Shown here: in pieces, positions 1 through 31,494 of the stretch
How positions within the stretch are numbered: position 1 is the stretch's first letter
Layout of the letters: every line of letters begins with the position of its first letter
Assembly (NCBI RefSeq): GCF_964194155.1
Contig: NC_135890.1
Span: 107,074,001-107,138,000 of the forward strand
Reading direction: 5' to 3'
DNA: 64,000 bases
Origin: Cetorhinus maximus
Taxonomy: Eukaryota
Made by a program: the position numbers and the translations under genes
Notes under the pieces: model-generated
Database searches by the model: none
Seen by the model: the letters and a program-made list of their open reading frames with translations, nothing else
Told to the model about the DNA's origin: nothing

Positions 1-33
1 TCTAACACTCATTCCATATTGGTGCTGTCTTAG

Positions 34-501
34 TTAACCACCTCGTAGACGTAGCATGAGGAAGATGGTGCTCTCAGGCTGAATATTGTAGTCGGCGAGT
101 GTCAGACCATCCTCCAGCTGTTTCCCCTCGCACACCAGACGCTGCTGACTGGCTGGGACACCCTCCTGCCGTTGTACCCATGCTCTAAAATTCTGAACAG
201 ACTCAGAGGGAAGAACGTCATATGTAGATGTTTTCCCCTTGTCATTCTTCAGGAATATCTGCATGCGCTCCTCGTTCTTGACAATCAGCATGACCTCATG
301 ACTGGGAGAGACATTGTAGTCAGACAGCCTCCTGCTGTCCTGCAGCTCTTCAGTGTTTCCATTTTGCACCAACAGGCGCTGTCGGAAATGGGGCACCTTG
401 GTTCTTTCATATATCATCTTCTTGAGAGCTGACACTTGGATGGAAGGGTCGATATCAAGTTCAATAACCTCACCGGTCATAAACTTCACCCGGAGTCTCA
501 T
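34..501 (-). CDS. ISG15: ISG15-like di-ubiquitin-like protein, paralog A copy 1 (155 aa)
   Basis: Two UBL domains, ISG15-type segment [14 protein letters not shown], ends LRLRGG-TAA, ISRE upstream. Confidence 0.88.
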
Positions 502-513
502 CTTGTCAAATTT

Positions 514-1980
514 CTGTTAAGAAATGAACAAGATATCAGTGACGGAGATGCTGTGTATTGTGTATCAGTCACATAATACATTTTGAACATGCAATGCATT
601 GTCCAGACAATCATAGAATCTAGGGAACTAATGCATTGTGTAATCTGCACCTACTGTACCCCCAACTCAGTCAAACTCCTGTCAGTATTTTATTCCCAAT
701 CGGTGCAATGCTGCACACAAAGCCATGGACTGCTGCAAATACCGAGCAGCCAGCATCTATTGACAGATTAGAGCCTTTTGGATTTGAAATATGAACTCTG
801 TTTCTCTCTCCACAGATGCTGCTAGGTCTGTTGAGTTTTACAAGCATTTTCTGTTTTAATTCTGATTTTCTTCTGTTTGTACATTGGATTTCAGCATCGC
901 TGCCAAGGCTAGTGTTTATTCCACAAAATTAATTGCCCTTGTGAAGGTGGTGGTGAGCTGCCTTCTTAATTTATCTGTTTTGTCTGCTGTGGACCAAGTT
1001 GTAAAGAGGTGTGGAACTCAGTGGTGGTCCTAGGAGAACCCAAAATAAGTTAAGTTAACATTTCAGGTGTAAATACTTTGTGGGAATTGGAAGATATGAA
1101 ATTGATCCCACTCCTCACATGTTTACCGGCTCACCCACATTCCCATATCTGCAACATTTCGATGTCATGTCTGTTTTCCAGTTTGAATAAGGCAGAAACT
1201 GAGTTAGAATTATTTGTGCAACTTATATTCTGAATTTATGTTGGAGTATTGAAGCTATCGGGTATCTGCTGCTCACACAGTTGCAATACTCGGTTTTTGC
1301 CACCAGAGTGACTCAAGTAACGTGTAACATGAGCCGTGAATGAACGGGCTTCACTTGTCGGGAGCGCTGAACATTTAAACTGCCAACAGCAGAGTTCTCT
1401 AAACCAGGAACGATGAAACTGTTCTTCGTTGTGCAGAATTCCATCACAACTTCGTTCGTTTTAGACACTGCACTCATGATGAAATTAGATTTGTCAGGCT
1501 GCCCAAAACCTACATCTGCCCTGGGAATACAGGAATGATTTATCTCACTCACATCTCTCTCACTGTTTAACTTTGGTTATATTCTCTTGCACTGTCGCCA
1601 CATTGAGAGGATATTATTTTATCTTAAATTGACTGTGAGATTCAATATAACCCATTCGAGCTCCTAACATAACTTCACCCTCAGACGAATCTTACTATAT
1701 TGTTTGTAAAAAGCAATGACCCTTGTAATCTTAGTTAATGAATGTTTAATGTATTATTTCGAATATTTGAACAGCCCCCGTTAGAATATCTGAGAACGGG
1801 TGTCACATAAACATTAGATCTGTGTCTCCAACAGGATTGAGTTTTTTAAATTTTCTTTCCATTCTCACCGGGTTTTAGTAATAATAATTTATCAGAAATT
1901 GCATCTGAGATTCAGAACAATGCAATTTCCACACCAGAAACAGAATATTGAAATTGCCCCGAAAGGCAGAATGAACTCAC
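514..1980 (-). other. 5'UTR intron of A1
   Basis: On the minus strand: donor ACT|GTGAGT at 1980 and acceptor TTCATTTCTTAACAG| at 514, 12 nt before the ATG. Inferred exon 1 (~1981-2170) has no ATG. Confidence 0.75.
775..870. repeat. Half-copy of the palindromic Penelope-like repeat in the A intron (also ~22495-22590, ~43565-43665)
   Basis: TTTCTCTCTCCACAGATGCTGC...TGAGTTTT..CAGCATTTTCTG matches the right arm of the 15170-15406 element. Confidence 0.6.
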
Positions 1981-2199
1981 AGTCCTTGCTGGAAGCACAG
2001 GTCCAGGAAAGTTCAGCTGCTGAATAATTTCTGATGCACTTTTTCTGCGCAGTTGGTCCTTTCTGTTTCCCTTCGCACCGACTCTCAGATCTGGACGGAG
2101 TATGTGAATCAAGCTCTTTGCTTCTGCTGCTCTGTATCTTGCTCTGTGCGTCTCTCCGTTAAACAACTCTGTCTGCGCGCGTCTCCGGCTCCCTCCTCC

Positions 2200-2311
2200 T
2201 TTTATTCTCAGACCCGGTTTCCGAACGTCACAGCCCCGCTGTCCTCTGATTGTCGCAAATCCCCTGTTCTGTTATGAAATAAATGTGATCGGAGCTGAAG
2301 TTTCGTTTTCC
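2200..2311 (-). promoter_or_regulatory. A1 promoter: AATAAAA TATA-like box (2200-2206), TGACGT CRE-like site (2225-2230), ISRE AGTTTCGTTTTCC (2299-2311)
   Basis: Exact match to the ISRE consensus AGTTTCNNTTTCC. Motif order is conserved in the B promoter. Confidence 0.8.
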
Positions 2312-2332
2312 GAAAACTTCCCCCCCACCCCC

Positions 2333-3075
2333 ATGGTAGGACCTTAGAAAGTACAGAGGATCAGAGGGACCTTGGTGTACATGTCCATAGATCCCAGAAG
2401 GCAGCAGCACAGGTAGATAAGGTGGTTAAGAAGGCATATGGGATGCTTGCCCTTGTTAGTCGAGGCATGGAATATAAGATCAGGAAGTTTATGTTGGAGC
2501 TGTATAAAACGCTAGTTAGACTACAGCTGGAGTAGTGTGTGCAGTTCTGGTCACCACAGCATAGGAAGGATGTGATTGCACTGGAGAGGGTGCAGAGGAG
2601 ATTCACCAGGATGTTGCCTGGGCTGGAGCGTTTCAGCTATTAAGAGAGACTGCATAGGCTAGGGTTGTTTTCCTTAGAGCAGACAAGACTGAGGGGGGAC
2701 CTGATAGAGGTATCCAAAATTATGAGGGGCATAGATAGGGTAGATAGGGAGAAACCTTTCCCCTTAGCAGAGGTATCAATAACCAGGGGGCATAGATTTA
2801 AGGCAAGTTGCAGGATGTTTAGAGGGGATCTGAGGAAAACCTTTTTCACCCAGAGGGTGGTTGTAATCTGGAACACACTGCCTGAGGGGGTGGTAGAGGT
2901 GGGAACCCTCACAACATTTAAGAAATATTTAGATGGGCACTTGAAATGCCACAGCATACAGGGCTACAGGCCAAGTGCTGGAAAATGCGATGGGAAAAGT
3001 TAGGTGCTTGATGGCCAGAACAGACACGATGGGCTGATGTGCCTGTTTCCGTTCTGTATAACTCTATGACTATCA
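2333..3075 (+). mobile_element. CR1-like LINE 3' fragment (also ~24150-24885, ~45470-46268)
   Basis: Degenerate ORF2 C-terminus (RLRGDLIEVSKIMRG...FFTQRVV) followed by a TATAACTCTATGACT tail. Confidence 0.85.
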
Positions 3076-4089
3076 AGCACTCATTCTAACTCAGACCCTA
3101 TGATGAAAGGCACTTCCTGTGACACCTCAACCATAAGGAAACAGGGAAGGGATTACAATGATATGGCTGGTATAGCACAATGGCATCTCCACATTGGCAC
3201 CAGTGATGTAAATTATATAATTCTTGATTTTGTACAGATTGAGGAGTGGGTACAAAAACTGAATTTGGCCACAAAATGTCCTGTGTCCTTAGCAATGATA
3301 GATAGATAAGTGCTTGATGGCTGGCACAGACACAATGGGCCGAAGGACCTGTCTCTGTGCTGTATAACCACATGACGCTACGACTCTAATACAGTACCGT
3401 ATTTCTTGGGCGGCTGCCTGAGTTGAGTTGGTTTATGTGAGATTTGGGGAGAGTGAGAGAAGGTGAAGGTGAGGTTGATGAGACCTGATTTGAATGGCAG
3501 AGCCAGTTCAAAGGACTAAATCTCTACCCCTTCTGATGTTCTTGCTTGATTTCGCAGTGCACCAATATTGTAAAAAGCTCATCAAATGAAAGATTGCTTC
3601 TATTCTGAACTGATAGTGAGGGTGATTGCAGATTGAAGTACAAATCTAGAGCTAACCCAAAGGGGCAGTGGAATCAGTTCTCCTCTTAAAAATTAAGTGA
3701 GACATTTTGGCTGAGATAATCATCTTAGTCTGATGTAGCATGTAACTGAGCTGGAGAGGCTCTCCATCAAAAGTGTGCCCTCAAAATGGCTGCTGTAATA
3801 CCCTTTCCATGATCTTACTCTGATTTTCTTCCACCTTCTAGAAACAAATTAACTCTTGCAATTAAATGAAGCAATGGAGTGGGGTCTCCATATTTCCCTT
3901 TCTTTGTGCCCGGTTACCATTCCTGAAAATCAGCACCAGTTTACCAGTGGCAGTTCTTAACCGATCAGAGATTGGGAAGGTGAAGAGGAGAAAGGTGCAG
4001 GAGGCCAATCAGGATGAAGATGCTGAGAAATAAGGTGGGTCCAAACACCTCATGAGCATCAAACAGGCGCGAGCACTGATCCTTGCAGC

Positions 4090-5452
4090 ACCCGGCTAGT
4101 TACATCCTGCCAACCAGAAAATGGCCCGTTTATTGCTACTCTCTGTTTTCTGACCATTAACCGATTCTCAGTTCATGTAAAATGTTAGCCCCATTCCCAT
4201 GAGCCCCAATCCTTTGAAATAAACTATTGGGCGGCAGTTTATTGAATGCCTTTGGATAATCCAATTAAAATAAATCCACTGGTTCCTCCTCATCTACCCT
4301 GCTACTCAGAACCTCAACAAACCTCAACAAACTTTAACAAATGTATAGAACACAGTTTCCCTTTCATACACCCATGCTGACTTTGACCAATCAAATTATG
4401 ATTTTATAAGTGCCCTATTATCATGTCCCTAATAACAAATTGTCGCACGTTCCTTTCTGTTGATGTCAGGTTAACTGGCCTATACTCCTTCCTGATACTT
4501 TCTCCCTTCGTTTCTTGAATAGTGGGGTTATGTTTGATCCTCCCAATCCATGAGGAGTGTTTGAGTATCTATGGAATCCTGCAAGACCCAGTGTGCCCAC
4601 TATCTCTGTAGCCAGATCTTTTAAACCCTAGGAAGGCGACGATGGGTCCAGGGAATCTGTTGCCTTTTAGTCCCATGAATTTCTCTCGTACTTTTTTCAG
4701 GATACTATTAGAGTAATCCTGGGGATTTTAATTTTCATAGCGACTGGATAAAATACATCTGCTGTAGTAATGTGGGGGATAAGGTTATAGAATGCAGTCA
4801 AAAATATTTTCTAGATCAGTGTCAGCAATCAGCCACAAGGAGAAGTCCCTAATTCTGGCACTAGATAGGGAACACAATCTTGGGGCCTTCTGGGTGTGGC
4901 TCCAGAGAACAGTATCCATCCCTCTGATTATACTGTCCTCTGCCATTACCACATTCCTTCCCCACAGTTTACTCTCAACATAAATGGCCTCATGTATCAT
5001 GGTGCTGTGGTCAGTTTTCTCATCCACCAGATTTTTTTATCATTCAGACAGGCAGCAGGAAGCCCATGCCTGTTAGATAAGGACAATGGCTGAGGTCCCC
5101 TGCACTGCACGATTGTGCTACGCTGTCTATATTCCTATTTTCTTATCCGCCTTGTGTCTCCTTACTAACCTGACCCGCAGCCACACCCTCCTGTCACTGA
5201 CCACTAATTAGACACTATGCGGCACTGCGTAACCTAAGGAGTGTAACTGCCTCTTGGATGAAGTGTCCAGCTTACAGTCTTCCTCCCTAATGCCCCACAA
5301 TGCCTGCATCTCGAATTGAAGCTCGACAACTCGGAAGTTGAACTTGCTTGAGGTTCAGACACTTACTGTGAATGTGGTTGTCAGCAATTGCAATGCTGTC
5401 CACAAACTCCCACATGCTGCTGTTGTGGCAAAGCACCTGCACTGCCATCACT
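4090..5452 (-). mobile_element. Decayed CR1-like LINE fragments, including an ORF1 esterase-like piece (also in units 2 and 3)
   Basis: ORF 4785-5027 VVMAEDSIIRG...LCSLSSARIRD resembles CR1 ORF1 GDS...CLPGA. 4090-4700 resembles antisense ORF2. Confidence 0.55.
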
Positions 5453-5464
5453 ATCTAACCCAGT

Positions 5465-5599
5465 GTCAGCTGTGCCTCAGTTCATAGCACCCTCGCCTTT
5501 GAATCAGAGGGTTGTGGGTTCATGTCCCACTCCCGGAAACCAAGAACTGTGATTGTACTCGAAAGAGTTGCAATCTGTGACTGTTGATAAACCGAAAGA
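5465..5599 (+). mobile_element. tRNA-derived SINE with 12-bp TSD, unit 1 only
   Basis: Degenerate A box (TGCCTCAGTTCATAGC) and B box (GGTTCATGTCCC). TSD ATCTAACCCAGT at 5453-5464 and 5600-5611. Confidence 0.75.
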
Positions 5600-6370
5600 A
5601 TCTAACCCAGTTTTATTTATTTCATTAATTAACATTTATGCATTCAAACAATTAGCTTAGTTTTTTAACCTTTACGATATAGTTTTAAGTGATTGGTATA
5701 TTGATATTTATCTGTAAATTACCCATTTCCTCCCCATGCTGTGATGTCACTTTGTGAAAGCAACAAAGCCCTGAGTTTACCAGCTCTTCTGGCCATTTAT
5801 GAAGAAGTCATTGGCACCACTCTAACAAAAATCAACTGCTCTGATCTGAGAGCCTCTTGTTGAATCCTTTGGCTGCATTGAGTTTCTGGAATGTCTCAGT
5901 CACCAGGGTGTCCCTGACATTATGCCACACCTCCAGCATTGCATTGCAATGTGAGTGTGGTCTCTCATGATTCACCTTTAGCACTGCATGAGAAACCACC
6001 GTCTCCACTGGCTGCATGAGATGTATGCTCACGAAATATTGATCTGTTAAAGCCTGTACCCTGATATCTTTGCGTTTGGTTCCTTCACCAAGGAAGAGGT
6101 TTTTGTCCCCTCCAGGGAGAGACAATTGTTTCCCTGTCATTTCCTCCCAGTTCTGTCTGCTCCCTGGTGCTCCGTGAATCACTGACTGATAACCTTCCAC
6201 CTCAGTAATTCCCTTCTCTCAAGTAAGTGCATCGGGACAGGTGTTTGAATAAGCAAGTTGTCTCTTGGAAGTTTCCAGTATTCCAAACTGGGATAATTAG
6301 AAAAGCATATTTTCTTACTTATTAAATGTGACCAGTGTGAACTTAATTTTTGCAAAATTGCTGCCTTAGT

Positions 6371-6475
6371 CACAGAATGACAAAATCACACAGTGCAGAA
6401 GAGGCCCTTTGGCCCATTGAGTCTACACCGACATGGGAGAAATGCCCGACCTACCCACCTAATCCCATTTACCAT
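6371..6475 (-). mobile_element. 3' tail of a CR1-partnered SINE/LINE (also in units 2 and 3)
   Basis: CACAGAAT..CAGTGCAGAAGAGGCCCTTTGGCCCA matches the LINE tail at ~18620-18670. Confidence 0.55.
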
Positions 6476-6993
6476 AATTAATACTCTTAGTTGATCGCTC
6501 AGTAAAGAATCAATACAGACATGATTAGCCAATAGTTCTGTGTTGTAAATCTTTATCATTCTCACAAAAACCTGATTGTTTGATATTTTTACCCAAAGCT
6601 GTGATGCTGTGAGAACCATTGAGATTGTCCAGTCTGAGCATGTGCAGACTGAATGTTTTGGTACAATTTGTTCATCGGCTCGCCGGCTGCCTCCGTTCCT
6701 GATCCCATCAGGGCCTAAAATTCCTGCCCGGATTCTCTAACATATCATGTGAAAGGCCACAGAAGATCAACTGGGACAATATAATTAATATAATTAAACA
6801 GTGGAAAATATGGGCTGGTGATCTGGGCTGGTGTGATTCTTCAATATTGTCCATAAGTGTCTCATTCATAGCTGATTCTCCCATCACCACTTGTTAGGGT
6901 AAATGATCATAACCTGGGTTTAAATATGCATCCCGGATGGAATGCAGGGAAAGCCACAGACAATACAAACAGATAGAAACACACATTCCAATT

Positions 6994-6999
6994 TTTATT
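6994..6999 (-). terminator. Poly(A) signal AATAAA of B1 (equivalents ~28662, ~50042)
   Basis: Minus-strand AATAAA followed by a GU-rich tract (TGTGTGTTTCTATCTGTTTGT), ~870 nt after the stop codon. Confidence 0.6.
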
Positions 7000-7862
7000 A
7001 AAATGGACAACTTTACTTTCAAATCACATTGGGTATTTTGGCAAATACAATGTGCAGGCCTGACATCCTCTGCTCTTACACAACACTAAGCACCCAGATT
7101 AAAGCATTCCAATGTTAAACACATACAATTTTCCAAGAACACATTAAGGTTAAAGCAATTACTTGTAGATGACCTTAAGTCATTTTAAAATGAAGCTGGA
7201 AGACACTCATTGTTGATCCTTTGGAATTTTTGGCATGGCCCCTCCTATTCAGTGAAAGAGCTTCGGAATTGCCACATCAGCTAACTAATGGTCCCTGAGA
7301 GTGAGAAGGTGGATTCGTACTGAATGAGAGGCAAGTTTGGAGCTGTGGATCAGGGACTGGATCATTATTGGCCTAAATCTTCAGTAGAATCTTGAAGAGT
7401 AACAGAACATACTTTTGACCAATGATCGGCCAGGATTGATGTGAATCAATGTATCACGAGTCAATGATCAGAATGGAACACGTTGCATTAGCAGTCCCCC
7501 CGATTCCTTCTATATTATTAATTAAGTTGCTGACTCTTGTAAAAATTGTGTCCAATGTCTTGTACCAGCATCTTTTCTCGGGTGAGAATGCAGGAAGGTG
7601 ACCTGCACCCAGGCCTCAGTTGGGATCATTCCCTAGTCAGACATTATCTGTTGAACAAAGTTCCTGTTGTTATGGGAACTGGGGCAGACAGGAATAAGAT
7701 TCAAAAGTATCATGGACAAGTCAGTGACTGTGCAACCTGGGACTCTTACTAACTGCAGCTGAGAAAACAGGAGTATATGAAAAAATTGATCAATTGAGGC
7801 ACTATAAATAATTTACTTCTGTACTAGCTAGAGTTCATGGTATAAACCGCTGCAAGTGCAGG

Positions 7863-8330
7863 TTAACCACCTCGTAGACGGAGCATGAGGAAGATGGTGC
7901 TCTCAGGCTGAATATTGTAGTCGGCGAGTGACCGACCATCCTCCAGCTGTTTCCCCTCGTACACCAGACGCTGCTGACTGGCTGGGACACCCTCCTGTCG
8001 TTGTACTCGTGCTCTAAAATCCTCAACGGACTCAGAGGGACGAACGTCATATGTAGATGTTTTCCCCTTGTCGTTCCTGAGGAAAATCTGCATCCGCTCC
8101 ACGTTCTTGACAATCAGCATGACAGCATCGCTGGGAGAGACATTGTAGTCACACAGCCTCTTGTTGTCCTTCAGCTCCACAGTGCTCCCATTTTGCACCA
8201 CCAGGCGCTGTTGGAAATAGGGCACATTGGCTTTTTTGTATATCAACCTCTTGAGAGCCGAGATTTGGATGGAAGTGTCAACATCAAGTTCAATATCTTC
8301 ACCGGTCAAAAACCTCACCTGGAGTCTCAT
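7863..8330 (-). CDS. ISG15: ISG15-like protein, paralog B copy 1 (155 aa)
   Basis: Two UBL domains, LRLRGG-TAA. N-domain distinct from A. Confidence 0.88.
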
Positions 8331-8342
8331 CTTGTCAAATTG

Positions 8343-9402
8343 CTGTTAAGAGATGAACAGGATGTCAGTGATGGGGACACTTTATATCACGAGTCAATTG
8401 CTAAGAATGAATGAAAGAATTTAACACGCAAGACGCATTGTCCCAGGCACTGGCTGCAAGCGCAGAAGCTGAGGGGAAACTGTTGTGTAAATTTCATCTG
8501 CAATAATAGCAACATCTGGCTTCTTACATGATACCTGAATCGCCGAGACACCAATCTTCACAAACTCCTCCCTTCCAGCCAGACAAAAAGCACCAGATTC
8601 ACATATCTGTTCCCCTGCTTGCATTTGACTTTGTCTTTGCTGCTCTATGCTGACTTGTTAAAATATTCAGAAACCCCCGGGGATCTGCGTACTGAGCTGC
8701 AATGCTAGCATCTGTCTGAAGTAGCCCTCAGTGTGCTGTGTAATGTGGCACAGTCTGAGTTTGGGTTCATGGGGAGATAAGAACATGGGCTTGGAAATTC
8801 TGTGGGTTTCTCTTGATCTTGCACCATAGCTTCAGCAATTCATCAATGGAGTCTAAGAGAATGGTTGTAAATGAAGGAAAATGACTGTAAGTTTCACCTT
8901 CAAATTAAAGGAACCATTTGTATAACTCTCTAAACCAGAAGACAGGGCATCCGCAGTCCAGTAGGAAAAAAAAAGTACCCTATTGTTGAGTAGAATTTTC
9001 TCTTTTGATGCCAGTGGTCTATGAATGGAATCTGCACAGTTATGACAGACCAAGCAGCAGAGAGTTATTCTGTCCAGAAATGCTTCCTCTCAGAATCAGA
9101 CTTACATAATGCATTCTATTGAAAAACAAGAAACTACTTTGCTGATATTAGATAATGAATGGGTAATGCATTACTTCAAATTTCCATCTTTAAAATAGCA
9201 GACAAAGGGGTGGCACATAAACATGTTAAGTTGTTATTGCCTTGTATTGTCTTCAATAACTCACAGGCTATGCTTTTTAAATTATCCTGACCCAGTTCAG
9301 AGAATATTAAGAACTTATTTTAAATGGTGAGTTTCATTCAAAATGACTTATTTTAAAACCCAGAATTAGAATATTGAAATTTCTAAATAAAAGACAGGAT
9401 AC
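8343..9402 (-). other. 5'UTR intron of B1 (donor uncertain, 9402 or 9407)
   Basis: Acceptor CTCTTAACAG| 12 nt before the ATG, as in A. The donor region is homologous to that of A (GCAAAGATT GTCA[C/G]GTATC). Confidence 0.6.
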
Positions 9403-9627
9403 GTGACAATCTTTGCCGGAAGCACAAGTCCAGGTGAATCAGAAGAAATTTGAGCTGCACAATGGGGAGAGATTCACTTCCCTGCACAGTTTGTTTTCTC
9501 TGTGTTTCTCCACACCGGCTCTCCAATCTAGAATAAGGGAATAAAATTCTGTGTGTTTCTTGCTCCGTCTCTTCTGTGTTTCCCACCGTTAAACAAGTGA
9601 GTGAGTGTCTGGCTCCCTCCTCAGTCC

Positions 9628-9882
9628 TTTTATTATTATTGCTGGTTTCTGAACGTCACAGCCTTGTTGCCCTCTAATTGCTTTGAACAAACAAGAGAGA
9701 CCAGAGCTGGTTTCATTTCCCAAAGCCTCCCCTCAGAGTCTGGGAAATTACCTGACAGGAGCAGCAGGAATGCACCTTGCTACAGGTAACAGGTACTGAA
9801 TTCCGAGTTATCTCAGTTTCAGATTCCTCTCTGGTGCCACAGTCATAAACAACAAGAGCAGAATCAGCTGAGCGGTGAGTCA
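9628..9882 (-). promoter_or_regulatory. B1 promoter: TAATAAAA box, TGACGT, proximal ISRE/IRF GGTTTCATTTCC (9709-9720), distal AGTTTCAGATTCC (9815-9827), AP-1 TGAGTCA (9876-9882)
   Basis: Motifs read directly from the sequence. Positionally homologous to the A3 promoter. Confidence 0.7.
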
Positions 9883-10019
9883 GAGGCCTCACTGCCTGTT
9901 TGAAGCTGTGGGCAGGGCTTGAACAATACAATGTATAAAGATACAGTGCATCAGACCAGTCAGTTTAATTATCTAATGAAAAGAAATTGGCCTCAAATTG
10001 CAGGGGTCCTGCTCCACGA

Positions 10020-12440
10020 GTACAAGTCAAATTTGTGGAATGTCTACGAAATGGCTTTTTGGAGCAGCTTGTGGTGGAGCCCACTAGGGGACAGGCAATT
10101 CTCGATTTAGTGATGTGTAATGAGGCAGATTTGATAAGGGAGCTTAAGGTGAAGGAACCCTAAGGAGGAAGTGACCATAATATGATAGAATTTACCCTGC
10201 AATTTGAGAGGAAAAAGCTGGAATCAGATGTAACGGTATTACAGTTGAATAAAGGCAACTGCAGAGGCATGATGGAGGAACTGGCCAGAATTGACTGGGA
10301 GATGAGCCTAGCAGGAAAGACAGTGGAACAGCAATGGCAGGAGTTTCTGGGAGTAATTTGGGAGACATAGCAAAAATTCATCCCTAGGAAGAAGAAGCAT
10401 ACTAAAGGGAGGACGAGGCAACCATGGCTGACAAGGGAACTCAGGGACAGCATAAAAGCGAAAGAGAAAGCATACAATACGGCAAAGAGCATTGGGAAAC
10501 CAGGGGATTGGGATGCCTACAAAGACCAACAGAGGACAACTAAAAAAGAAATAAGGAGGGAGAAGATTAAATATGAGGGTAAACTAGCCAGTAATATAAA
10601 AGAAGATTGCAAGAGTTTTTTTAGATATATAAAGGGTAAGAGAGAGGCAAAAGTGGCCATTCGGCCGCTGGAAAATGACGCTGGATAAGTAGTGGTGGGG
10701 AACAAAGAAATGGTGGAGGAACTGAATAGGTACTTTGCATCAGTCTTCACGGTGGAAGACACGAGTAACATCCCCAAAGTTCAAGAGGGTCGGTGGGGCA
10801 GAGGTGAGTATGGTGGCCATTACCAAGGAGAAGGTGCTAGGAAAACTGAAAGGTCTGAAGGTGGATAAATCACCTGGGCCAGATGGATTACACCCCAGAG
10901 TTCTGAAGAAGATAGCTGAAGAGATAGTGGAGGCGTTAGTGGTGATCTTTCAGGAATCACTGGAGTCAGGGAGGGTCCCAGAGGACTGGAAAATCGCTAA
11001 TGTAACCCCCCTGTTTAAGAAGGAAGTGAGGCAAAAGACAGGAAATTACAGGCCGATTAGCCTGACCTCGGTCATTGGTAAGATTTTAGAGTCCATTATT
11101 AAGGATGAGATTTCAGAATACTTGGAAGTGCATGGTAAAATATGGCAAAGTCAGCATGGTTTCATCAAGGGGAGGTCATGCCTGACAAATCTGTTAGAAT
11201 TTTTTGAGGTGGCAATGAATAGGTTAGACAAAGGAGAGCCAATGGATGTTATCTACTTGGACTTCCAGAAGGCCTTTGACAAGGTGCCACACAGGAGGCT
11301 GCTCAGTAAGATAGGAGCCCATGGTGTTAGAGGCAAGGTACTAGCATGTCAAGAAGATTGGCTGTCTGGCAGGAGGCAGAGAGTGGGGATATGGGGGTCC
11401 TTCTCGGGATGGCGGCCGGTGACTAGTGCAGTTCCTCAGGGGTCAGTGTTGGGACCACAACTTTTCACTTTATACATTAATGATCTAGATGAAGGAACTG
11501 AGGGCATCCTGGCTAAGTTTGCAGATGATACAAAGATAGGTCGAGGGACAGGTAGTATTGAGGAGGCGTGTTGGCTGCAGAAGGATTTGGACAGGTCCGG
11601 AGAATTGGCAAAGAAGTGGCAGATGGAATACAACGTGGGTAAGTGTGAGGTCATGCACTTTGGTAGGAAGAATAGAGGTATAGACTATTTTCTAAATGGG
11701 GAGAGAATTCAGAAATCTGGAGTGCAAAGGGACTTGGGAGTCTTAGTCCAGGATTCTCTTAAGGTTAACTTGCAGGTTGATTCGGTAGTTAGGAAGGCAA
11801 ATGCAATGTTTGCATTTATTTCGAGTGGACTAGAATATAAAAGCAGGGATGTGCTGCTGAGGCTTCATAAGGCTCTGGTCAGATCACATTTAGAATATTG
11901 TGAGCAATTTTGGGCCCCGTATCTCAGGAAGGATGTTCTGGCCCTGGAGAGGTTCCAGAGGAGGTTCACGAGAACAATCCCAGGAATGAAAGGCTTAACA
12001 TATGAGGAACGTTTGAGGACCCTGGGTCTATACTCAATGGAGTTTAGAAGGATGAGGGGGGATCTGATTGAAACTTACAGAATACTGAAAGGCCTGGATA
12101 GAGTGGACGTGGGGAAGATGTTTCCATTAGTAGGAGAGACTAGGACCCGAGGGCACAGCCTCAGAGTAAAGGGAGGACCTTTTGGAAAAGAGATGAGGAG
12201 AAACTTCTTTAGCCAGAGAGTGGTGAATCTATGGAATTTGTTGCCACAGAAGGCTGTGGAGGCCAGGTCATTGAGTGTATTTAAAACCGAGATAGATAGG
12301 TTCTTGATTTGTAAGGGGATCAAAGGTTATGGAGAGTAGGTGGGAGAATGGGGTTGAGAAACTTATCAGCCATGATTGAATGGCGGAGCAGACTCGATGG
12401 GCCAAATGGCCTAATTTCTGCTCCTATGTCTCATGGTCTC
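10020..12440 (+). mobile_element. 5'-truncated CR1-clade LINE with a 534-aa RT-containing ORF (10735-12339)
   Basis: YRPISLTS, YLDFQKAFDKVPH, VPQGSVLGP and FADDTK motifs. Stops and frameshifts upstream. Confidence 0.93.
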
Positions 12441-13019
12441 ATGCTGTTAGGTAGAACAAAACCCCTTTCCCTTTCCAATCACAAGGCCAAGGGGTTAATG
12501 TCACTTCGATGTCATGGTGGATACTCAGAAACTGTAAGACTGCTTTAGTGGACAGATCCATCCTCATCTTTGCTACGTTTATGATATCTGAAATCCCTCT
12601 GTGACTATTCTCACATGATCCTTTTTGCTGCTACTGTGGACTCGAGCTTCTATGCCTCCCATATTCCTTTGCTGCCCCAGGTAAGAAGGACAAGGTTTGT
12701 GACATGTAAACCATCTCCACCAATCAATACATTTTGATTGTCTTATTCTAAAAGAAAACTTAATATTTTGTCAAATCCCACGTGTGCACACCCCGGTTGA
12801 ATTACAATTCATCCTCAGACCCTTCCTCTAGTATCGACATGGTGCATCCTGTGTAATTTCAGCCGAGGTAGAGACAGGCTGTTCAGATCAGTGTTGGAAA
12901 TTTTTGTCAAGCTTTGCATTAGCACTGATCCTCCAGCTGTACACCACTCCACTACTCGTGTTCTGATGGGGGTTCTAACCTGTATCTTAACCTCTCCTCC
13001 TCCACCAATGGAAACAGCA

Positions 13020-13136
13020 GCACAGCCATATCACAGCCATATCACAGCCGTAATACAGCCATGCCACAGCCATATCACGGCAATATCGGAGCCATATCAC
13101 AGCCATACCACTGTCATATCACAGCCATATCACAGT
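13020..13136 (+). repeat. 11-bp minisatellite (CACAGCCATAT)n, resuming at ~14767-14805 after a LINE insertion (also in units 2 and 3)
   Basis: About 10 degenerate copies before the LINE and about 3 after it. Confidence 0.8.
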
Positions 13137-14765
13137 GATACCTCCTCCGGATGTTCCCAGCATCACCGATACCAGTCTTCAGCCAATTGAATTCACTCCA
13201 CGTGATGTCAAGAAATGGCTGAAGGTACTGGACACTGCAAAGAGTATGGGCTCTGATAATATCCTGACAATAGTAATGAAAACTTATGCTCTAGGACTTG
13301 CTGTGCCCCTAGCCAAGCTGTTCCAGTACAGCTACAACAGTGGCATCCACCCAGCAATGTTGAAAATTGCCCAGGTATGTCCTGTAAACAAAATACAGGT
13401 CAAAACCCACTGGGCATAAGACCGCCCCATCAGTCTACACTTGATCATCAGTAAAATGATGGAATGGGTCATTAACAGTACTATCATGTGGCACTTGATT
13501 AGCAATAACCTGCTCACTGACACCCAGTTTGGGTTTGGCCAGAGTCAGTCAGCTCCTGACATCATTACAGCCTTGGGTCAAACATGGACAAAAGAATTGA
13601 AGAGAAGAAATGAGGTGAGACTCACTGCCCTTGACATCAGGGAAGCATTTGATTGAGTGTGGCATCAAATAGCCTTAGCAGGACTGGAGTCAATGGGAAT
13701 CAGGGGGAAAGCCCTCTGCTGGTTAGAATCATACCTAGCACAAAGGAAGATGGTTGTGGTTATTGGAGGTCAATCATCTCAATTCCAGTACATCACTGCA
13801 GGAGTTTCTCAGGGTAGTTCCTCGGCCTAACCATCTTCAGCTGTGTTATCAATGACCTTCCTTCCATCATAAGGTCAGAAGTGGGAATGTTCGCTGATGA
13901 TTTCACAATGTTCAGCACCACCCGTGATTCCTCAGATACAGAAGCAGTCCATGTCCAAATGCAGTAAGACCTGGACAATATTCAGGGTTGGATTGATAGG
14001 GGCAATTAACATTCACACCACACAAATGCCAGGCAATGACCATCTCTAACAAGAGAAAAACTAACCATCGCCCCTTGATATTCAATGGCATTACCATCGC
14101 TGAATCCCCAACTATCAATATCCTGGGGGTTACCATTGACCAGAAACTGAACTGGATTAGCCATATCAATACTGTGGCTCTTATAGCTGGGAATTTTGTG
14201 GAGAGTAATTCGCTTCCTGACTCCGCAAAGCCTGTCCACCATCTACAAGGCACAAACCGGGAGTGTGATGGAATACTAATCACATGCCTGGATGAGTGCA
14301 GCTCCAACAACACTCAAGAAGCTTTACGCCATCCAGGACAAAGCAGCCAGCTTGATTGGCACCCCACCCACAAATATTCACTCCCTCCACCACTGACGCA
14401 CAGTGGCAGCAGTGCGTACCACCTAGAAGATGCAATGCAAGAACTCACCAAGCCTCCTTACACAGTACCTTCCAAACTCACGACCAATACCATCTAGCAG
14501 CAGACACAGGGGAACAGCAGCACCTAGAAGTTCCCCTCCAAGCCACTCACTATCCGGACTTGGACATATATCGCTGTTCCTTCACTATTGGTGGGTCAAA
14601 ATCCTGGAACTCCTTCCCTAATAGCGCTGTGGGTGTAACTACACCACATGGATTTCAGCGGTTCAAGAAGGCAGCTCACCACCACCTTCTCTAGGACAAT
14701 TAGGGATGGGCAATAAATGCTGGACTATCCAGCGACACCCACATCCCATCAATGATAAAAAGAAA
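13136..14765 (+). mobile_element. Decayed non-LTR retrotransposon of a second CR1/L2-like family, RT to 3' end (also ~34707-36346, ~56089-57730)
   Basis: RPISL, ALDIREAFD, GVSQGS and FADD motifs with stops and frameshifts. 3' end A-rich. Confidence 0.85.
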
Positions 14766-15169
14766 ACCACAGCCATATCACAGCCATACCACAGCCGTAT
14801 CACAGGCAGACCACATTGCCAGCACCGACAGCCATGAAGGCAAATTGGAGTTATAGTTCTTTAAAAGACTCTGTTGAGCTCCTCACTGTGACATAATCTT
14901 TAGCTCCTCTTGTTTACAACTACGATCACCATCAGGTCCACACGGGATATGTTTGGTCCACAAGATGGGAGTCTCCTTCGCTTGGTCTGTTCCCCGTCTA
15001 GGAATGGTGGGTTCTGATACACACTTTGTCTCAGGGACTACCCTTTTTGCTGACTCTGCTGGGACATCAACCCCCTAAGGAATATATAGTTTCCTGGATG
15101 GAATTTACCTTGCCATTTGGACCGACACAACTGGATATAATTATCAGGTGGGCTCATCAGCATTATTCT

Positions 15170-15406
15170 CACTAAGATAAAAGCAAAATACTGTGTATGC
15201 TGCAACCTGAAACAAAACCAAAAACTGCTGGAGAAACTCAGCAGGCCTGACAGCATCTGTGGAGAGAAAAAGCCAACATTTCGAGTCCAGATGAGTCTTC
15301 ATCTTCAGTTCTGAAGAAGAGTCATCTGGATTCGAAACGTTGGCCCTTTCTCTCCACAGATGCTGTCAGATCTGCTGAGTTTTTCCAGCAGTTTTTGTTT
15401 TTGTAT
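15170..15406. mobile_element. Palindromic (~95-bp arms) Penelope-like/MITE-like insertion with 9-bp TSD CATTATTCT (also 36751-36987, 58135-58371)
   Basis: Arms are reverse complements around CTTCAG/TTCTGAAG. TSD at 15161-15169 and 15407-15415. Confidence 0.75.
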
Positions 15407-16064
15407 CATTATTCTAACGTTGTCTCCTGGGTTGTTTACTCACACATTTTTCTATTCACAACTCTCCCCAATTTGTCTCAAAGTGACAAATGAGAAATGT
15501 CTAAGGGCAGAGTAGTTTCAGACTCTGACATAAGTATTTTCCATTGAAACTCTCTGATTAAACATATTGCATTTCCTTCCTTCATTCATCATACTTATTG
15601 CCTTCGTTCCAACTGTTTGGGTAGCCACCTTTAATCGCTCCATGGTTTTTCCACACGTGTACCCTCCCTGACTCCCCAGGAATCACTTGGCGTTTGTTAA
15701 ATGCGATATCGTGGTCACTAAAGTTGAACCAATCAAAGAAATAGCTTTTCTAACCTGGATTGCCAAAATACACAGGTTGACCTCTTCCAGAATATGGATG
15801 GCTATTAACAGGTGGCTGATCTTTAATGTTTGGGCCCATATCTTCGACTGACCGTCAATCCAGATTTTTCTGAAAAATAAAACAAAATACACCAACCTCT
15901 GTGGGCGAAACTTTTCTTTTGGACACAGGTGAGTAGTTAAGGGTTAACAAAATTGCCTTTCTCTTCTGTGGCCTCTATTAACCCTATCAATTCTGCATAG
16001 GAGTGAATCAGCTGAACCCTCTCCCTTTGAGCGCTGCCTTTGTAACGCATACCTCTGCTGGCAT

Positions 16065-16945
16065 TTAGCCTTCCTGGGCAGGGCTGGCTCCCAGATTCAA
16101 CTCCTCCTTCCGCATCCCCTCGGAGGTGGTTCTTCTGGATCTCATTATTGGGTCTGTGGGCCTGATGCTGGCTGCTTATCCTTTTGAAAATGTTCCCCCT
16201 TAAATAGCTTCACCTGATTAATATGAAACCACGTATCCCACTTCGTAAGTTGGACAGCATACACCATTGGGCTGGCTTTATCCACAATGCTGTATGGCCC
16301 CTTGTATACAGATTCAAACAGACCAACTCTCGCATAATTTCATGCCTTAACCTGCTGACCTATATCCCACTCTTGTGGTTTGGATTTTTCTAGGAGCACT
16401 TTATTAACACAATGCGGCCTCCCTATGTTCCCTGCAGCCTCATCGTGGAGGCCTTGCAAGGCCTGCTGGAGGTTTGGCACAAACCTTTCCTCAGTAACTT
16501 CTCTGAACTGACTCTCAGTTAAAGTGGGCACCCACAGGTGTTCTACAGGGGGTTCTGATGGGTCTTCCTGTAAGCAGCTCATGTGCAGAGTGTCCGGTTA
16601 CCTTGGTTTGACCTGCCCTGATACTCATAAGCACTGGCAGTAGATTTTCATCCCATTTCTCTCCTTGGGCCATTAACTCTTTCCTCAGTGCTGCTTTAAT
16701 AGTGCGATTCATGCGCTCCACTATCCTGGATGATTGTGGACTGTAAGTCACATGCGTCTTCCCCTCAATTCCTACCAGAACATTGTGGGCCTTCATCCAA
16801 CCTGATCCGAATATTCCGACACGGTTCCCATCGAGCCATCCCCTCCCCTAGGGCGTAAGGTGGCCCACTTGACCAAGGGCTGTTAAACTGAGACTCAGAA
16901 TAAATAAATGTGTGAAATGCTCCCGTGTCCACTAAATATTTTCTG
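16065..16945 (-). mobile_element. LTR retroelement (Gypsy/ERV-like) pol relic: protease motif joined to integrase core and GPY/F domain
   Basis: YLVDTGA; YSPQSSRIVERMNRTIKAALRK...WDENLLPVLMSIR...TGHSAHELLTGRP; YKGPYSIVDK...WFHINQVK. Truncated in units 2 and 3 (~37646-38045, ~59030-59429). Confidence 0.85.
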
Positions 16946-16948
16946 CCC

Positions 16949-17897
16949 TGATAGCTCAGTAAAGAATCAATGCAGACACGATTAGCCAATAGTTCTGTGT
17001 TGTAAACCTTTCTCGTTCTCACGAAAACCTGAGTATTTGATATTTTTACCCAAAGCTGTGATGCTGTGAGAACCATTTAGATTGTCCAGTCTGAGCATGT
17101 GCAGACTGAATGTTTTGGTATAATTTGTTCATCGGCTCGCCGGCTGCCTCCATTCCTGATCCCATCAGGGCCTAAAAATCCTGCCCGGATTCTCCGACAC
17201 ATCATGCGAAAGGCCACAGAAGATCAACTGGTTCAATATAATTAATATAATTAAACTGTGGAAATTATGGGCCGGTGATCTGGGCTGGTGTGATTCTTCA
17301 ATATTGTCCATAGGTGTCTCATTCATAGCTGATTGTCCCATCACCACTTGTTAGGGTAAATGATCATAACCTGGCTTTAAATATGGATCCCTGATGTAAT
17401 GCAGGGAAAGCCACAGACAATTCAGACAGATAGAAACACACATTCCAATTTAAAATAAACAGTTTTACTTTCAAATCACATCGAATATTTTGGCAGAAAC
17501 AACGTGCAGGCCTGATATCCTTTGATCTTGTAAAACACTAAGCACCCAGATTAAAGCATTCCAATGTTAAACACTTACAATTCTCCAAGAACACTTTAAG
17601 GCTAAAAGGAATTACCTGTAAAAGTTATTTTAAAATGAAGAAGGCAGGCAATCATTGTTGATCTTTATATGGGGAATATTTGGCATGTCCCCTCCTATAC
17701 AGTGAAACATTTTTGGAATTGCCCCATCAGCCATCTTATGGTCCCTGTGAGTCAGGAGGTGAATTAGTACCGAATGAGAGATGAGCTTGGAGCTGTGTAC
17801 TCATTAGGATCTCAACCAATATTAGTTTCACTCTTCAGAAGAATCTTTAAGGTTAACAGTACATGCTTTTGACCAATGATCAACCAGGGTTGATGTA
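16949..17897 (-). pseudogene. Orphan duplicate of the B 3'UTR and downstream flank with no CDS (also ~38040-38723, ~59424-60107)
   Basis: Aligns to ~6492-7443. The minus-strand AATAAA is lost. Confidence 0.7.
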
Positions 17898-18619
17898 AAA
17901 TGGTTCTGTACATCCTGGCACCGGCAACAAGAGAATCCCAGTGACCCAGTGCACTGGGACTTTTGAAGATGATGATAATTTCCTGCTTCTGCCCCTTCTC
18001 ATCACCCCCATCCTACTATCTGGCATGAAATGCAAACTGCAGATGGTGTAACCATGGACCTCTTGCTTCCCACCCTTGCCCCTTCTTCGCCTAACCTTCC
18101 ACTTCTGATTTTGTGATTTCTGATACCCTAGAACTGCCCACTTACACAGGCACAGCAGCCCAAGGAGCAAGAGAGAGAGCAGCAGCCACAGCACTGATGA
18201 AGAGGTCCTATCCACTTAACCTGGTGCTCAGATACTGCCGCTGTGCACAACTTTTAGAGGCCACTACAGATTTAGATCAGCATGTGGTGAGTCACCAGGC
18301 ATGAGTGGCCTGCAAACAGGCCAGGGGCAAAGGATGGTTTGTTTGTCAGCTAACTGGAGGGTGAGGTCACAGACAAATGTTACTGCAGTGGACTTGGTGA
18401 GGATCTCGATGGGACAGCATACAGGAGAATACTAAGGGGCATGCACACTGAGGTACTGGGTACATTGGGTGGCCTGGAGCAGGAGCACAGCCTCCCTATC
18501 ACTGTCAGGGAACATGGAGGGGTCTGACACCAAGTTGGCAGAGTTTACGGTTCAAAGCTTGCCCTCTCCGCAGCCACTACTCCATCTCTATCTCACGTTG
18601 CAGACCCAGGGGCACTGGC

Positions 18620-20440
18620 ACAGAATCACAGAATTATTACAGTGCAGAAGGAGGCCATTTGGCCCATCATGTCTGCACCGGCTCTCTGAGCATTTTAACT
18701 TAGTGCCAATCTCCTGCCTTTTCCCTGTAACCCTGCACATTGTTTCTATTTAAATAATCATCCAATGCCCTCTTGAATGCCTTAATTGAACCTGCCTCCA
18801 CCACTCTTCCAGGCAGTGCATTCGCTGTGTGAAGAAGTTTATTCTCACCTCACATTTGCTTCTTTTGCAAAACACTTTAAATCTGTGCCCTCTGGTTCTC
18901 GATCCGTTAAGGAGAGGGAACAGTCTCTCCCCATCTACTCTGTCCAGTCCCCTCATGATTTTGAAAACTTCTATCAAATCTCCTCTCAGCCTTCTCGTCT
19001 CCAAGGAAAACAGTCCCAACTTCTCCATTCTTTCCTCATAACTGAAGTGTCTCATCCCTGGAACCATTGCCGGTGCCTTATCAATTTTAAGTACCGACAG
19101 CTTATCCAATACCTCCTCCTTATCAATTTTTAACTCTAGTGACTGAGTTTCCTCCTCTGTCACCATGGCCTGGGCAGCATCTGCCTCGTAGGTAAAGACA
19201 GATGCAAAGTATTCATTTAGCACCTCAGCCATGCCTCTTGCCTCTATGTGTAAATGCCCTTTTTGATCCCTAATTGGCCCTACTCCTCCTTTTACCACCC
19301 TTTTACTATTGGTGTGCTTATAGAATACTTTGGCATTTCCTTTTAGTTAGCTGCCAGTCTTTGTTCATTATCCCTCACTGCTTCTCATATTTGCTTTTAC
19401 ACATCCCTTCTGAACCTTCTGTACTCAGCTTGGTTCTCAGTTGTATTTGCTGCCTGATACCTGTTGAAAGCACACTTTTTCTTCTTTAACCTAATTTCTA
19501 TTTCCTTTGTCATCCAGGGAGCACGGGATTTGTTTGTCCTACCCTTCCCTTTTGAGGGAACATGCCTTGACTGTGCCCAAACCTTCTCCTTTTTGAAGGT
19601 AGCCCATTGTTCAGCTCCTGTTTTTCCCACCAACCTTTGGTTCCAGTCCATCTGGTCCAGCTCTGTTCTTGCCCCAATGAAGTCCGTTCTCTGTCAGTTG
19701 ATTATTCTTATTCAGGTTTGACCAATGTCATTTTCCACCATCATCCGAAACCTTATGATACAATGATCACTGTTCCTTAAATGTTCCCCCACTGTCACTT
19801 GATCTACTTGGCCCACCTCATTGCCAAGAACGAGGTCTAGCAGTGTCTCGTTTCTTGTTGGACTAGACACTTCGTGCTGCAGGAAATTGTCCTGAACACA
19901 ATCTAGGAACGTTTGTCCCTCACTGCCCCTTACACTACCACTATCCCTGTCTATATACGGGTAATTAAAGTCCCCCATTTAATCTACACTACGATGTTTT
20001 CACCTCTCTGTAATTTCCTTGCAGATTTGTTCCTCAATATCCTTCCCATTAGCTGGTGGTCTGTATATTACTCCGAGCAATGTAATTGCACCTTTCTTAT
20101 TCCTTAGCTCTAGACAAAATGAGTCTGTCCTTGATTCCTCTGATACAACCTCTTTCTGCAGTACTGCAATACTCTCATTCACCAAAAATCCTCCTCCTTT
20201 GTTCTCTTTCCTATCTTTTCTGAACACCTTCTAATCAGGAATATTTAACACCCAGATCTGCCATTCCTTAAGCCAGGTCTCCATTATCGCCACAACATCG
20301 TAATCCCATATGACAATCTGTGCCTGTACCTCCCCAATTTTATTAACTATACGCCGTGCATTCACAAACGTGCAGTGTAACCCTGATTTTGTTTTCATTA
20401 CTTGCTCCCTTACTCTGACTCCATCTATTAACTTAGTATT
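18620..20440 (-). mobile_element. CR1-like LINE with endonuclease region and 3' end but internal RT deletion (also ~39447-41270, ~60830-62655)
   Basis: APE motifs NARRIVNK..ETWL, GVIYRPP, MGDFNYP, SDH. IDKAP is joined directly to MVPGMRHFSYEER. Confidence 0.85.
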
Positions 20441-21253
20441 CTCTTTGTCTTTTCTTAATTCTATCAACATGGAGAAAGGGTAATCTTTTCATTTGTAAAT
20501 TTAAACAGTATTTGCTATAACTGACACTGCTGTCCCCATACCTGTTGCAGCCTTTGTGTGGACAGGGCACCAAATCCTCCGTCTTCCCTGTCAGAATACA
20601 ACAATACTCTGGAAAATCCAAGAATCCCAGAAACAATCCAGAGTACCTCCAGACACTTTACAAATGCAAAAGTTCCTCATGTTAGCTTTCCTGCAACTTG
20701 GGTGCTTGGCCCTTCAAAGAATGCGAGTGCTAGACCCATCTTGTACCTCTGCAACTGATGTTTGCAGGCTGCTGTATGAATATGTTGTCTGGGCCTGAGT
20801 GAACCAAATTCGATATAGCTGGTGTCACATCAGTAGTTGGACTGGGTGACAACAGGACAGCGTCGATTCACAGCTCACATGTAGGGGAAACCCTGGGTGT
20901 GCTCTTTTACGAATGGAACTCCGTACAGGAAGCAGCCGCAGCCAAATGGTATATGGCATGACTAAAATGAATTCTATGCTATTTGTGTTTGATGTGTCTT
21001 GATTAGGCTCCTTGACATTGTCAGCAGCTGCCTCAATGCACTGAGGCTAATCTGAATCTGGTCCCTAATGAGTCCTCAGTGTATCAATCAGAGTTATTTC
21101 CTTAAAACTCTTGGTTTGGTTAAATCAAATGAAAATGGTTTCAGATGTTGATCGTGACGTAACATACATAGATTCATGGACAATTCACATTTACAAATTT
21201 TCACAAGGCAGAAACAACACAACAGCATTTAGATTTGTATCCAAAGAAACAAC

Positions 21254-21259
21254 TTTATT
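21254..21259 (-). terminator. Poly(A) signal of A2 (equivalents ~42079 for A3 and ~63467 for the next A copy)
   Basis: Minus-strand AATAAA followed ~30 nt later by TGCTGTTGTGTTGTTTCTG. Confidence 0.65.
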
Positions 21260-21753
21260 TTCAAGTAACGTTGCACATTTCAATAAAATGAACAGCCCGA
21301 GCACATAAATTCTGTTATTACAAAAGACTAAGCACAATGACTAAAGCACTTATATGTTGGACATAGACATCTACTCACATAAAGTAAGGCTAAAGGAATG
21401 CTTGCAGAACATTTAGCTTTATTGTTCATTATATACACTTATTTTGGGCAAATTTCAGTGCATCACAAAAAGCGTCCCATTTCTCCATTTCTCATACCAA
21501 CCACCTTGTGCCACACCCGAGTGGCAATAGAACCGAAAAGAATAATCCTCATGCTATGAGCGCACGTGCATTAGGTTAACACTGACACTCACACAACCTA
21601 TTTCATAGAGGATATCCACAGACAGCAGGCTTGAGGGAGGTTGGGCCTAATCTGAATTTAGGTCCCAAAGTAAAATGTTTAGTAATCTCTGGCCTCATGG
21701 ATTTTTATCGTAGTTTTTGTGTGATATCTAAAACTCATTCCATATTGGTGCTG

Positions 21754-24115: not shown

Positions 24116-24128
24116 AGTTTCGTTTTCC
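24116..24128 (-). promoter_or_regulatory. ISRE of A2
   Basis: AGTTTCGTTTTCC. Confidence 0.8.
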
Positions 24129-31375: not shown

Positions 31376-31494
31376 GGTTTCATTTCCCAAAGCCTCCCGT
31401 CAGAGTCTGGGAAATAACCTGACAGGAGCAGCAGGAATGAACCTTGCTACAGGTATCAGGTACTGAATTCCGAGTTATCTCAGTTTCAGATTCC
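31376..31494 (-). promoter_or_regulatory. Proximal (31376-31387) and distal (31482-31494) ISRE-like motifs of B2
   Basis: GGTTTCATTTCC and AGTTTCAGATTCC. Confidence 0.7.

Follow-up and report, generated by a model that had tools for sequence, protein, structure and literature searches.

Why should one genomic array keep two kinds of a ubiquitin-like modifier that have grown far apart in one half of the protein and much less in the other? The question is raised by a 64-kb stretch of the genome of the basking shark, Cetorhinus maximus (NC_135890.1, positions 107,074,001 to 107,138,000; hereafter the window), which is the left end of an array of genes for two-lobe ubiquitin-like (UBL) proteins resembling ISG15. 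The window contains six open reading frames (ORFs) of 155 amino acids (aa), all on the minus strand, in which two subfamilies, A and B, alternate with a repeat of about 21.4 kb. A genome-wide search of the shark's own assembly, together with 400 kb of flanks, gave 19 copies (8 A and 11 B), arranged as eight A+B units plus three lone B copies farther to the right than the window. Every copy has two ubiquitin-like lobes, here called the N-lobe (codons 1-76) and the C-lobe (codons 77-155), and the sequence LRLRGG is present in 19 of 19; the repeat units are 97-98% alike. A and B are probably an old duplicate pair, amplified eightfold, in which selection and patchy gene conversion have kept the C-lobes alike while the N-lobes drifted at close to the neutral rate.

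Divergence of the two lobes

The initial annotation of this DNA had compared A1 with B2 (22 aa differences in residues 1-76 and six in residues 77-155) and A1 with B3 (10 of 231 nt differing from codon 80 to the stop), and had noted that residue 124 reads C, Y, C in the three A copies of the window and Y, C, C in the three B copies. All of these counts were reproduced, but they had been drawn from the most alike pairs: 10 of 231 is the lowest value among the nine A × B pairs of the window (range 10-18), and over all 88 A × B pairs of the array the same C-lobe stretch has 6-21 differences with a median of 14. A1 and B1, the pair lying within positions 34 to 8,330, have 24 aa differences in the N-lobe and nine in the C-lobe, with eight synonymous differences in each. 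When all 19 copies are considered, the contrast between the lobes exceeds chance. Fixed A/B differences make up 27 of the 48 variable sites in codons 1-76 and none of the 45 in codons 77-155 (Fisher, 1e-10); at strictly synonymous sites the figures are 5 of 16 and 0 of 16 (p = 0.043). Twenty N-lobe residues, spread over codons 6-69, are fixed between the 8 A and 11 B copies.

The description of the C-lobe as homogenised was too strong. It is a mosaic, with B-B differences (median 15 of 231 nt, 55 pairs) as large as those between A and B. Similarity between A and B does stop at the stop codon, as had been observed, but this edge is not special to the C-lobe; it bounds the whole coding exon, and the similarity starts equally abruptly 47 nt before the ATG.

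Selection and gene conversion

The copies B1, B9, and B11 have kept an old B-type C-lobe. Between A and these copies, the synonymous divergence (dS) is equal in the two lobes (0.177 N, 0.165 C) while the nonsynonymous divergence (dN) is not (0.156 N, 0.061 C), and with transition weighting dN/dS is 0.88-1.15 in the N-lobe and 0.37-0.46 in the C-lobe. Because dS is equal and dN unequal, selection makes most of the contrast, and because the contrast is seen in copies of the old type, most of it at the amino acid level exists without recent conversion. The comparison of A with B2-B7 gives a C-lobe dS of 0.114 and dN of 0.032. The per-domain dS check proposed earlier therefore has a divided outcome: C-lobe dS is not lower for all pairs, being equal for B1, B9, and B11, and lower, although not significantly, for B2-B7. 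No test placed the N-lobe dN/dS above 1 (0.64-1.15 by group and weighting), and so positive selection was not detected there.

Faster change of the N-lobe is seen between other sharks as well (19.5 vs 14.4 differences, 35 pairs). The A/B lobe ratio is above this baseline on average (p = 0.024), with A1-B1 only marginally so (p = 0.053). Together with the equal dS of B1, B9, and B11, this baseline would suit purifying selection acting alone, with no exchange between A and B and with the shared variants arising by recurrent mutation. Such an explanation is already largely refuted, and we regard it as very improbable, on account of the C-lobe sites themselves. B2-B7 have A-type bases at nt 246, 252, 254, 258, 290, and 303 of the coding sequence (CDS), where B1, B9, and B11 are B-type; of these sites, 246, 252, and 254 are linked, do not involve CpG, and change type as a set. 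About 5.7 fixed synonymous differences between A and B would be expected in the C-lobe and there are none (Poisson, 0.003), in line with the Fisher value given above. Long identical runs reach p < 0.05 in 39 of the 88 A-B pairs (five pass Bonferroni correction), dS within B is 0.10 in the C-lobe vs 0.035 in the N-lobe, and a signal resembling the pairwise homoplasy index (PHI) is present at p = 0.003-0.01.

The relatives help to polarise these sites. G290 and C303 occur in B-type contigs, lying on B1, of two relatives (organisms C and D), and R85 is found in both white shark B proteins; the B states are therefore old. G324 is shared by some A copies with B4, B5, and B8, and T398 by some A copies with B8 and B10. 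Neither allele was read in four runs of three relatives, of which two runs were covered to about 76% and 84%, and this suggests that the exchange came after the lineages had separated; as contigs of relatives drop rare variants, these unread alleles are support for exchange, short of proof. Residue 124 is C in all four white shark A proteins and Y or H in their two B counterparts, so C124 is the A state and the C/Y pattern at this residue indicates transfer in both directions. The search for conversion tracts bore out the conversion proposed in the initial annotation, with A-type linked sites inside B copies and lineage-specific alleles common to both subfamilies. The N-lobe DNA tree separates A from B at 100/100; in the C-lobe DNA tree, the branch dividing A + B2-B7 from B1 + B8-B11 has support of 82/96 and the branch dividing A from B only 55/72. 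Judged from the sequences, A-B conversion is real but patchy.

A mosaic of this kind could also be produced by an assembly that joined A and B reads through their similar C-lobes. The likeness of the units, and a 66-kb stretch present twice at 99% identity, mean that some copies may be haplotypes or misjoins. The tracts, however, are short and internal and are flanked left and right by B-specific sites; B2-B7 carry private alleles that every A copy lacks; and mosaics also occur in white shark and catshark records, all of which makes an artefact highly unlikely as the source of the pattern.

The data support the earlier suggestion that a common C-lobe is maintained by conversion and/or selection; both act, and selection has the larger part. 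That this lobe faces the activating enzyme (E1) holds for human ISG15, for which E1 is reported to contact the C-lobe only and replacement of the N-lobe to leave charging unaffected, as described in bioRxiv 10.1101/2023.04.06.535837. At the corresponding shark positions 121, 123, 128, and 147 there is no variation among the 19 copies, while 149 varies in two B copies; for the shark, the part played by E1 is an analogy. A plausible sequence of events is as follows. A and B are likely an old duplicate pair of an ISG15-like tag that was later amplified eightfold, each gene presumably being induced by interferon through a motif resembling the interferon-stimulated response element (ISRE). A UBA7-type E1 would adenylate the C-terminal Gly and contact only the C-lobe, as in the human protein, and purifying selection from this shared conjugation enzyme would be the main cause of the likeness of the C-lobes. 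The conserved C-lobe may have stayed similar enough for A-B conversion, which would add to the likeness in patches, and the diverged N-lobe may not, so that the N-lobes would have drifted apart at about the neutral rate. Exchange appears to have been mostly from A to B (B2-B7, B8, B10) and sometimes from B to A (Y124 in A2; P142 in A1, A6, and A7). In B, selection may have preserved a small patch near residues 12 and 32-35.

The A/B pair in other sharks

White shark proteins (4 A and 2 B) show the same split, with 22.5 aa differences in the N-lobe vs 7.0 in the C-lobe, and nearly all of the 20 fixed N-lobe residues have the same state there. In two catsharks, the paralogues differ at six fixed N-lobe positions, five of which fall among the 20 of the basking shark (p = 0.004-0.03, according to which alignment columns are included). 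At four positions (E/K32, T/A34, K/N35, and N/S49), catsharks and lamniform sharks have the same residues on both the A and B sides, and D12 is found in two of five catshark B-like proteins. K28, H38, and E51 of lamniform A are found in both catshark types, and lamniform B has retained states that occur in outgroups. The simplest reading, a single duplication, suggests that A and B separated before the two shark orders did, a split dated to the Jurassic. Catshark A and B fall together (97/92) in the protein tree of the C-lobe, for which the approximately unbiased (AU) test rejects a single clade of all B (5.7e-7), and the simplest reading suggests that catsharks exchanged sequence in both lobes after the duplication. 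The corresponding AU test on the N-lobe did not reject a single B clade across orders (p = 0.37), a result that is uninformative as the groups were named from N-lobe motifs.

Several points weigh against an old pair held alike in the C-lobe by selection and patchy conversion. The age estimate uses protein characters only, and the catshark A/B labels were given after these had been viewed. The per-lobe dS difference is significant in none of the five pairs tested (Fisher, 0.40-1.0), and the C-lobe tree, with its A|B branch at 55/72, fails to reject the division of A from B. The PHI-like signal includes exchange within subfamilies; the shared sites 258, 303, 308, and 322 involve CpG and could be recurrent mutations; and, because B2-B7 share private sites, their tract probably goes back to a single event that amplification then multiplied. 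Relaxed selection and mixed selection would account equally well for an N-lobe dN/dS near 1. Finally, conjugation of A and B, their induction by interferon, and the role of a shark E1 are predictions from sequence.

Records from other cartilaginous fishes have features of their own. White shark, houndshark, and sawshark records join copies head to tail after LRLRGG (among P0121, P0137, P0143, P0297, P0002, and P0298), possibly through errors in the gene models. In devil-ray records the form is N-C-C, three lobes with a linker inside, apparently a genuine internal duplication. Rays (P0291-P0296, P0298) also have two gene types, which differ in the C-lobe loop at about 124-127 and at the N-terminus.

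Possible functions of the N-lobe

The initial annotation had described A and B as one handle with two tags, the N-domains providing two different reader surfaces; on this view, selection would keep the N-lobes distinct because different host proteins read A and B conjugates. The pair SUMO1 and SUMO2/3 is an analogy for two tags that are read by different proteins. Here, the B signature K32, A34, and N35 has been kept across two shark orders, the 20 residues fixed between subfamilies have nearly all held their state in white shark, and the catshark-fixed positions coincide with them beyond expectation, four with the same residues. Positions 6, 12, and 34 align with the TEK box of ubiquitin (described in PMC4822132), and the B signature at 32-35, next to TEK-aligned position 34, may form one surface. 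Between subfamilies there are 23 nonsynonymous to eight synonymous differences and within them 11 to 12; that contrast, however, reaches only p = 0.086, with dN/dS at 0.64-1.15. The differences are also spread along most of the lobe, neither tag has a known reader, and catsharks keep only six fixed N-lobe differences. As the paralogues of Scyliorhinus canicula have 12.2 differences in the C-lobe vs 7.2 in the N-lobe, one handle with two tags is not general. The net charge of the N-lobes does not differ between A and B. On balance, separate readers are an unlikely explanation of the dimorphism.

Less likely still is that viral antagonists binding the N-lobe have kept the dimorphism, with one version escaping while the host partners stay the same. 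In human ISG15, the contacts of influenza B NS1 are confined to the N-lobe and a coronavirus protease touches both lobes, according to the account in bioRxiv 10.1101/2023.04.06.535837. The array lies beside an expanded OASL cluster, and dN/dS in the N-lobe is close to 1 even though the fold is conserved. The N-lobe is nevertheless nearly invariant within a subfamily (within-B dN 0.006), unlike a running arms race, and only about four N-lobe differences separate the basking shark genome from white shark.

A bolder proposal, speculative and rather unlikely, is that A and B are two functionally distinct ISG15-type modifiers in one conjugation pathway; that selection has protected the B patch at 12 and 32-35, on the TEK-box side, from conversion since before mackerel and ground sharks split, and that this patch would bind a different reader; and that the locus beside OASL would be the ancestral site at which one of ISG15 and the OASL tandem UBL gave rise to the other.

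Relationship to ISG15, OASL, and polyubiquitin

The proteins are filed here as ISG15-like. The match to human ISG15 is full-length (residues 3-155 to 5-157, E 1e-24), and among natural single lobes the N-lobe scores highest with ISG15, at 43 bits vs 38 for ubiquitin. The AlphaFold model (pLDDT, its predicted local distance difference test score, 88.6) has template modelling (TM) scores of 0.82 with mouse ISG15, 0.74 with the UBL of chicken OASL (7SBI), and 0.46-0.53 with linear di-ubiquitin. ESM Atlas neighbours of the homologue P0051, a stand-in for A1, include ISG15 clusters at 0.95 and 0.93, with a Ubiquitin D cluster fifth at 0.93. Sequence and predicted lobe arrangement are nearer ISG15 than di-ubiquitin; the differences in score are modest, and solved structures may have shaped the model.

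Like ISG15 of human, mouse, and bat and teleost isg15, the shark proteins have two UBL lobes and LRLRGG, an ISRE-like motif in the promoter, and a constrained C-lobe. They differ in number, with 19 copies in two subfamilies where a single ISG15 is usual among fish and six are reported for salmon (PMC13030082, a 2026 review, and PMC12234341), and isg15 is listed in bioRxiv 10.1101/693333 as a one-to-one ancestral gene. They differ in sequence, as R121 and Q128 replace human W123 and P130 and the hinge Cys is absent; the mammalian C-lobe patch W123/P130/T125/F149/N151 corresponds to R121, Q128, V123, F147, and M149, with only the Phe matching. They differ also in location, since the array is beside OASL and a P2RX2-like gene on C12 and the matches to NOC2L, HES, and AGRN are on C15. 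Human ISG15 lies between HES4 and AGRN. Among the best candidates scored, none of the 94 ubiquitin-family matches falls on C15, where Noc2, Hairy_orange, and NtA (agrin) cluster at 8.9-9.8 Mb, and the mammalian ISG15 site seems to be empty in the shark (C15:8.9-9.8 Mb). Zebrafish and human ISG15 are called syntenic in PMC5381560. Searches for homologues and representatives gave only cartilaginous-fish relatives and polyubiquitin-like proteins among the matches listed, and no teleost ISG15.

The tandem UBL of OASL, both in chicken (7SBI) and in the neighbouring shark OASL, likewise has LRLRGG and a similar predicted arrangement, and the shark OASL is at the same locus; chicken OASL is reported to conjugate via its LRLRGG (PMC8764230). 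A and B, however, are genes in their own right on the opposite strand, each with a separate promoter and a first exon that does not code, and their identity to a neighbouring OASL UBL exon is only 32-36%. An OASL identity was rejected because the coding exons are spliced to their own first exon and the OAS exons are on the other strand, more than 100 kb right of the window. Polyubiquitin, the NCBI label for proteins of this type, is similar in that the C-lobe shares 56-61% of its residues with the ubiquitin of the same genome, and different in that the shark N-lobe is divergent, with a three-residue insertion and no LRLRGG between the lobes; this identity was rejected, the units not being near-identical and LRLRGG occurring only at the C-terminus. 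FAT10/UBD, whose C-terminus is unlike LRLRGG, was rejected because all 19 copies have that sequence.

In the ISG15 system, UBA7 is the dedicated E1, conjugation proceeds through UBA7, UBE2L6, and HERC, and USP18 takes the modifier off again. Three E1 loci were found. A C6 exon scores 76 bits to UBA1 and 39-41 to UBA7, and a C4153 exon 98 to UBA1. The C6 gene (12.15-12.19 Mb) is a second UBA1-family E1, more diverged than that on C4153; it is a UBA7 candidate only, still scoring closer to human UBA1. The array can also be compared with the red/green opsins and RHD/RHCE, which are old paralogues with patchy exchange and a few sites that resist homogenisation, although the resisting sites of the shark array are not known to be linked to any functional difference.

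Organisation of the array and its neighbourhood

Coordinates are given in Table 1. In contigs of relatives (runs X15 and X17, presumed RNA), A and B each lack a GT-AG intron, and the coding exon of each is joined to its own short non-coding first exon. An element resembling the ISRE consensus is present as a motif upstream of 8 of 8 A and 11 of 11 B copies and is aligned between A and B, while the A and B promoter patches align at only 65-67%. Downstream of it, both promoters have a TGACGT motif like a cAMP response element (CRE) and a TATA-like element (window positions about 2220-2230 in A1).

Table 1. Positions of the array features within the 64,000-nt window
Feature	Position	Strand	Remarks
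A1, 155-aa two-lobe ORF ending LRLRGG	34..501	-	N-lobe 274-501, C-lobe 34-273
A1 intron (GT-AG), between non-coding first exon and coding exon	514..1980	-	joint 513 to 1981 in X15, X17 contigs (presumed RNA)
A1 ISRE-like promoter element	2299..2310	-	same in A2 at 24116, A3 at 45194; motif only
B1 ORF, B-type with old B-type C-lobe retained	7863..8330	-	
B1 CDS nt 238-303, old B haplotype T246, C252, G254, C258, G290, C303	8028..8093	-	
B1 codons 32-35, B signature common to catshark B-like paralogues	8226..8237	-	A1 counterpart 397-408
B1 intron (GT-AG)	8343..9402	-	1060-nt skip in X15, X17 contigs (presumed RNA)
B1 ISRE-like promoter element, aligned with A element	9709..9719	-	B2 at 31376, B3 at 52754
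A2 ORF, with B-type Y124 (nt 21851)	21754..22221	-	
B2 ORF	29531..29998	-	
A-type tract in B2 (CDS nt 238-303), putative gene conversion common to B2-B7	29696..29761	-	
A3 ORF	42827..43294	-	
B3 ORF	50910..51377	-	
A-type tract in B3 (CDS nt 238-303)	51075..51140	-	
Three units of the ~21.4-kb A+B tandem repeat	1..64000	.	

Some copies depart from the common form. B8 (C12:107,231,665-107,232,132) has no ATG and many private changes, and B9 and B11 (C12:107,285,801-107,286,265 and 107,381,580-107,382,044) have no stop and read past LRLRGG into a 38-residue tail; these three may be decaying copies or precursors that need trimming. The stretch duplicated at 99% identity (C12:107,253,498-107,319,680 vs 107,349,211-107,415,476) is either a very recent duplication or a haplotype placed twice. 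Each unit of the window has a reverse-transcriptase frame of a long interspersed nuclear element (LINE), presumably of CR1 type, at 10810-12339, 32367-33923, and 53745-55301, with decay differing per unit. A synonymous T at window position 42899 (CDS nt 396 of A3) is present in 19 of 19 copies, and most contig depth of three relatives has C; its fixation across the array is a possible sweep.

The array lies between a P2RX2-like gene on the left and about eight genes with an OAS domain and UBL exons. The left neighbour (C12:106,978,971-107,022,000) was also considered as P2RX7, which was rejected as the best match is P2RX2; an HNF1 gene and a polyubiquitin gene are on the same contig. The OASL-type genes, about eight on the plus strand at C12:107,247,000-107,421,000, have B9-B11 interleaved among them. 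Their tandem-UBL exon ends in LRLRGG plus three residues, like the conjugating avian OASL; four genes have the full two-lobe UBL exon and three the second lobe only.

Significance

In a literature search that covered few fish-immunology journals, no description of a shark ISG15 array was found. The contrast between the lobes is mostly ordinary ISG15 constraint together with patchy conversion in a tandem array, and as such is what known ISG15 biology and the genetics of tandem arrays predict. Three things stand out beyond it: how many copies there are, the probable antiquity of the A/B pair together with the B patch that has survived in it, and the position of the array next to OASL. Nineteen copies in two long-lived subfamilies are unusual against the single ISG15 of most fish, and the public labels "polyubiquitin-like" or "uncharacterized" hide these ISG15-like genes of sharks. 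The link to OASL bears on the origin of ISG15. The purpose of the ISG15 N-lobe is still debated; charging by E1 and E2 does not require it, and viral proteins target it. The A/B pair, in which the C-lobes are nearly shared and the N-lobes differ at 20 fixed residues, offers natural material for an experiment in which the lobes are swapped.

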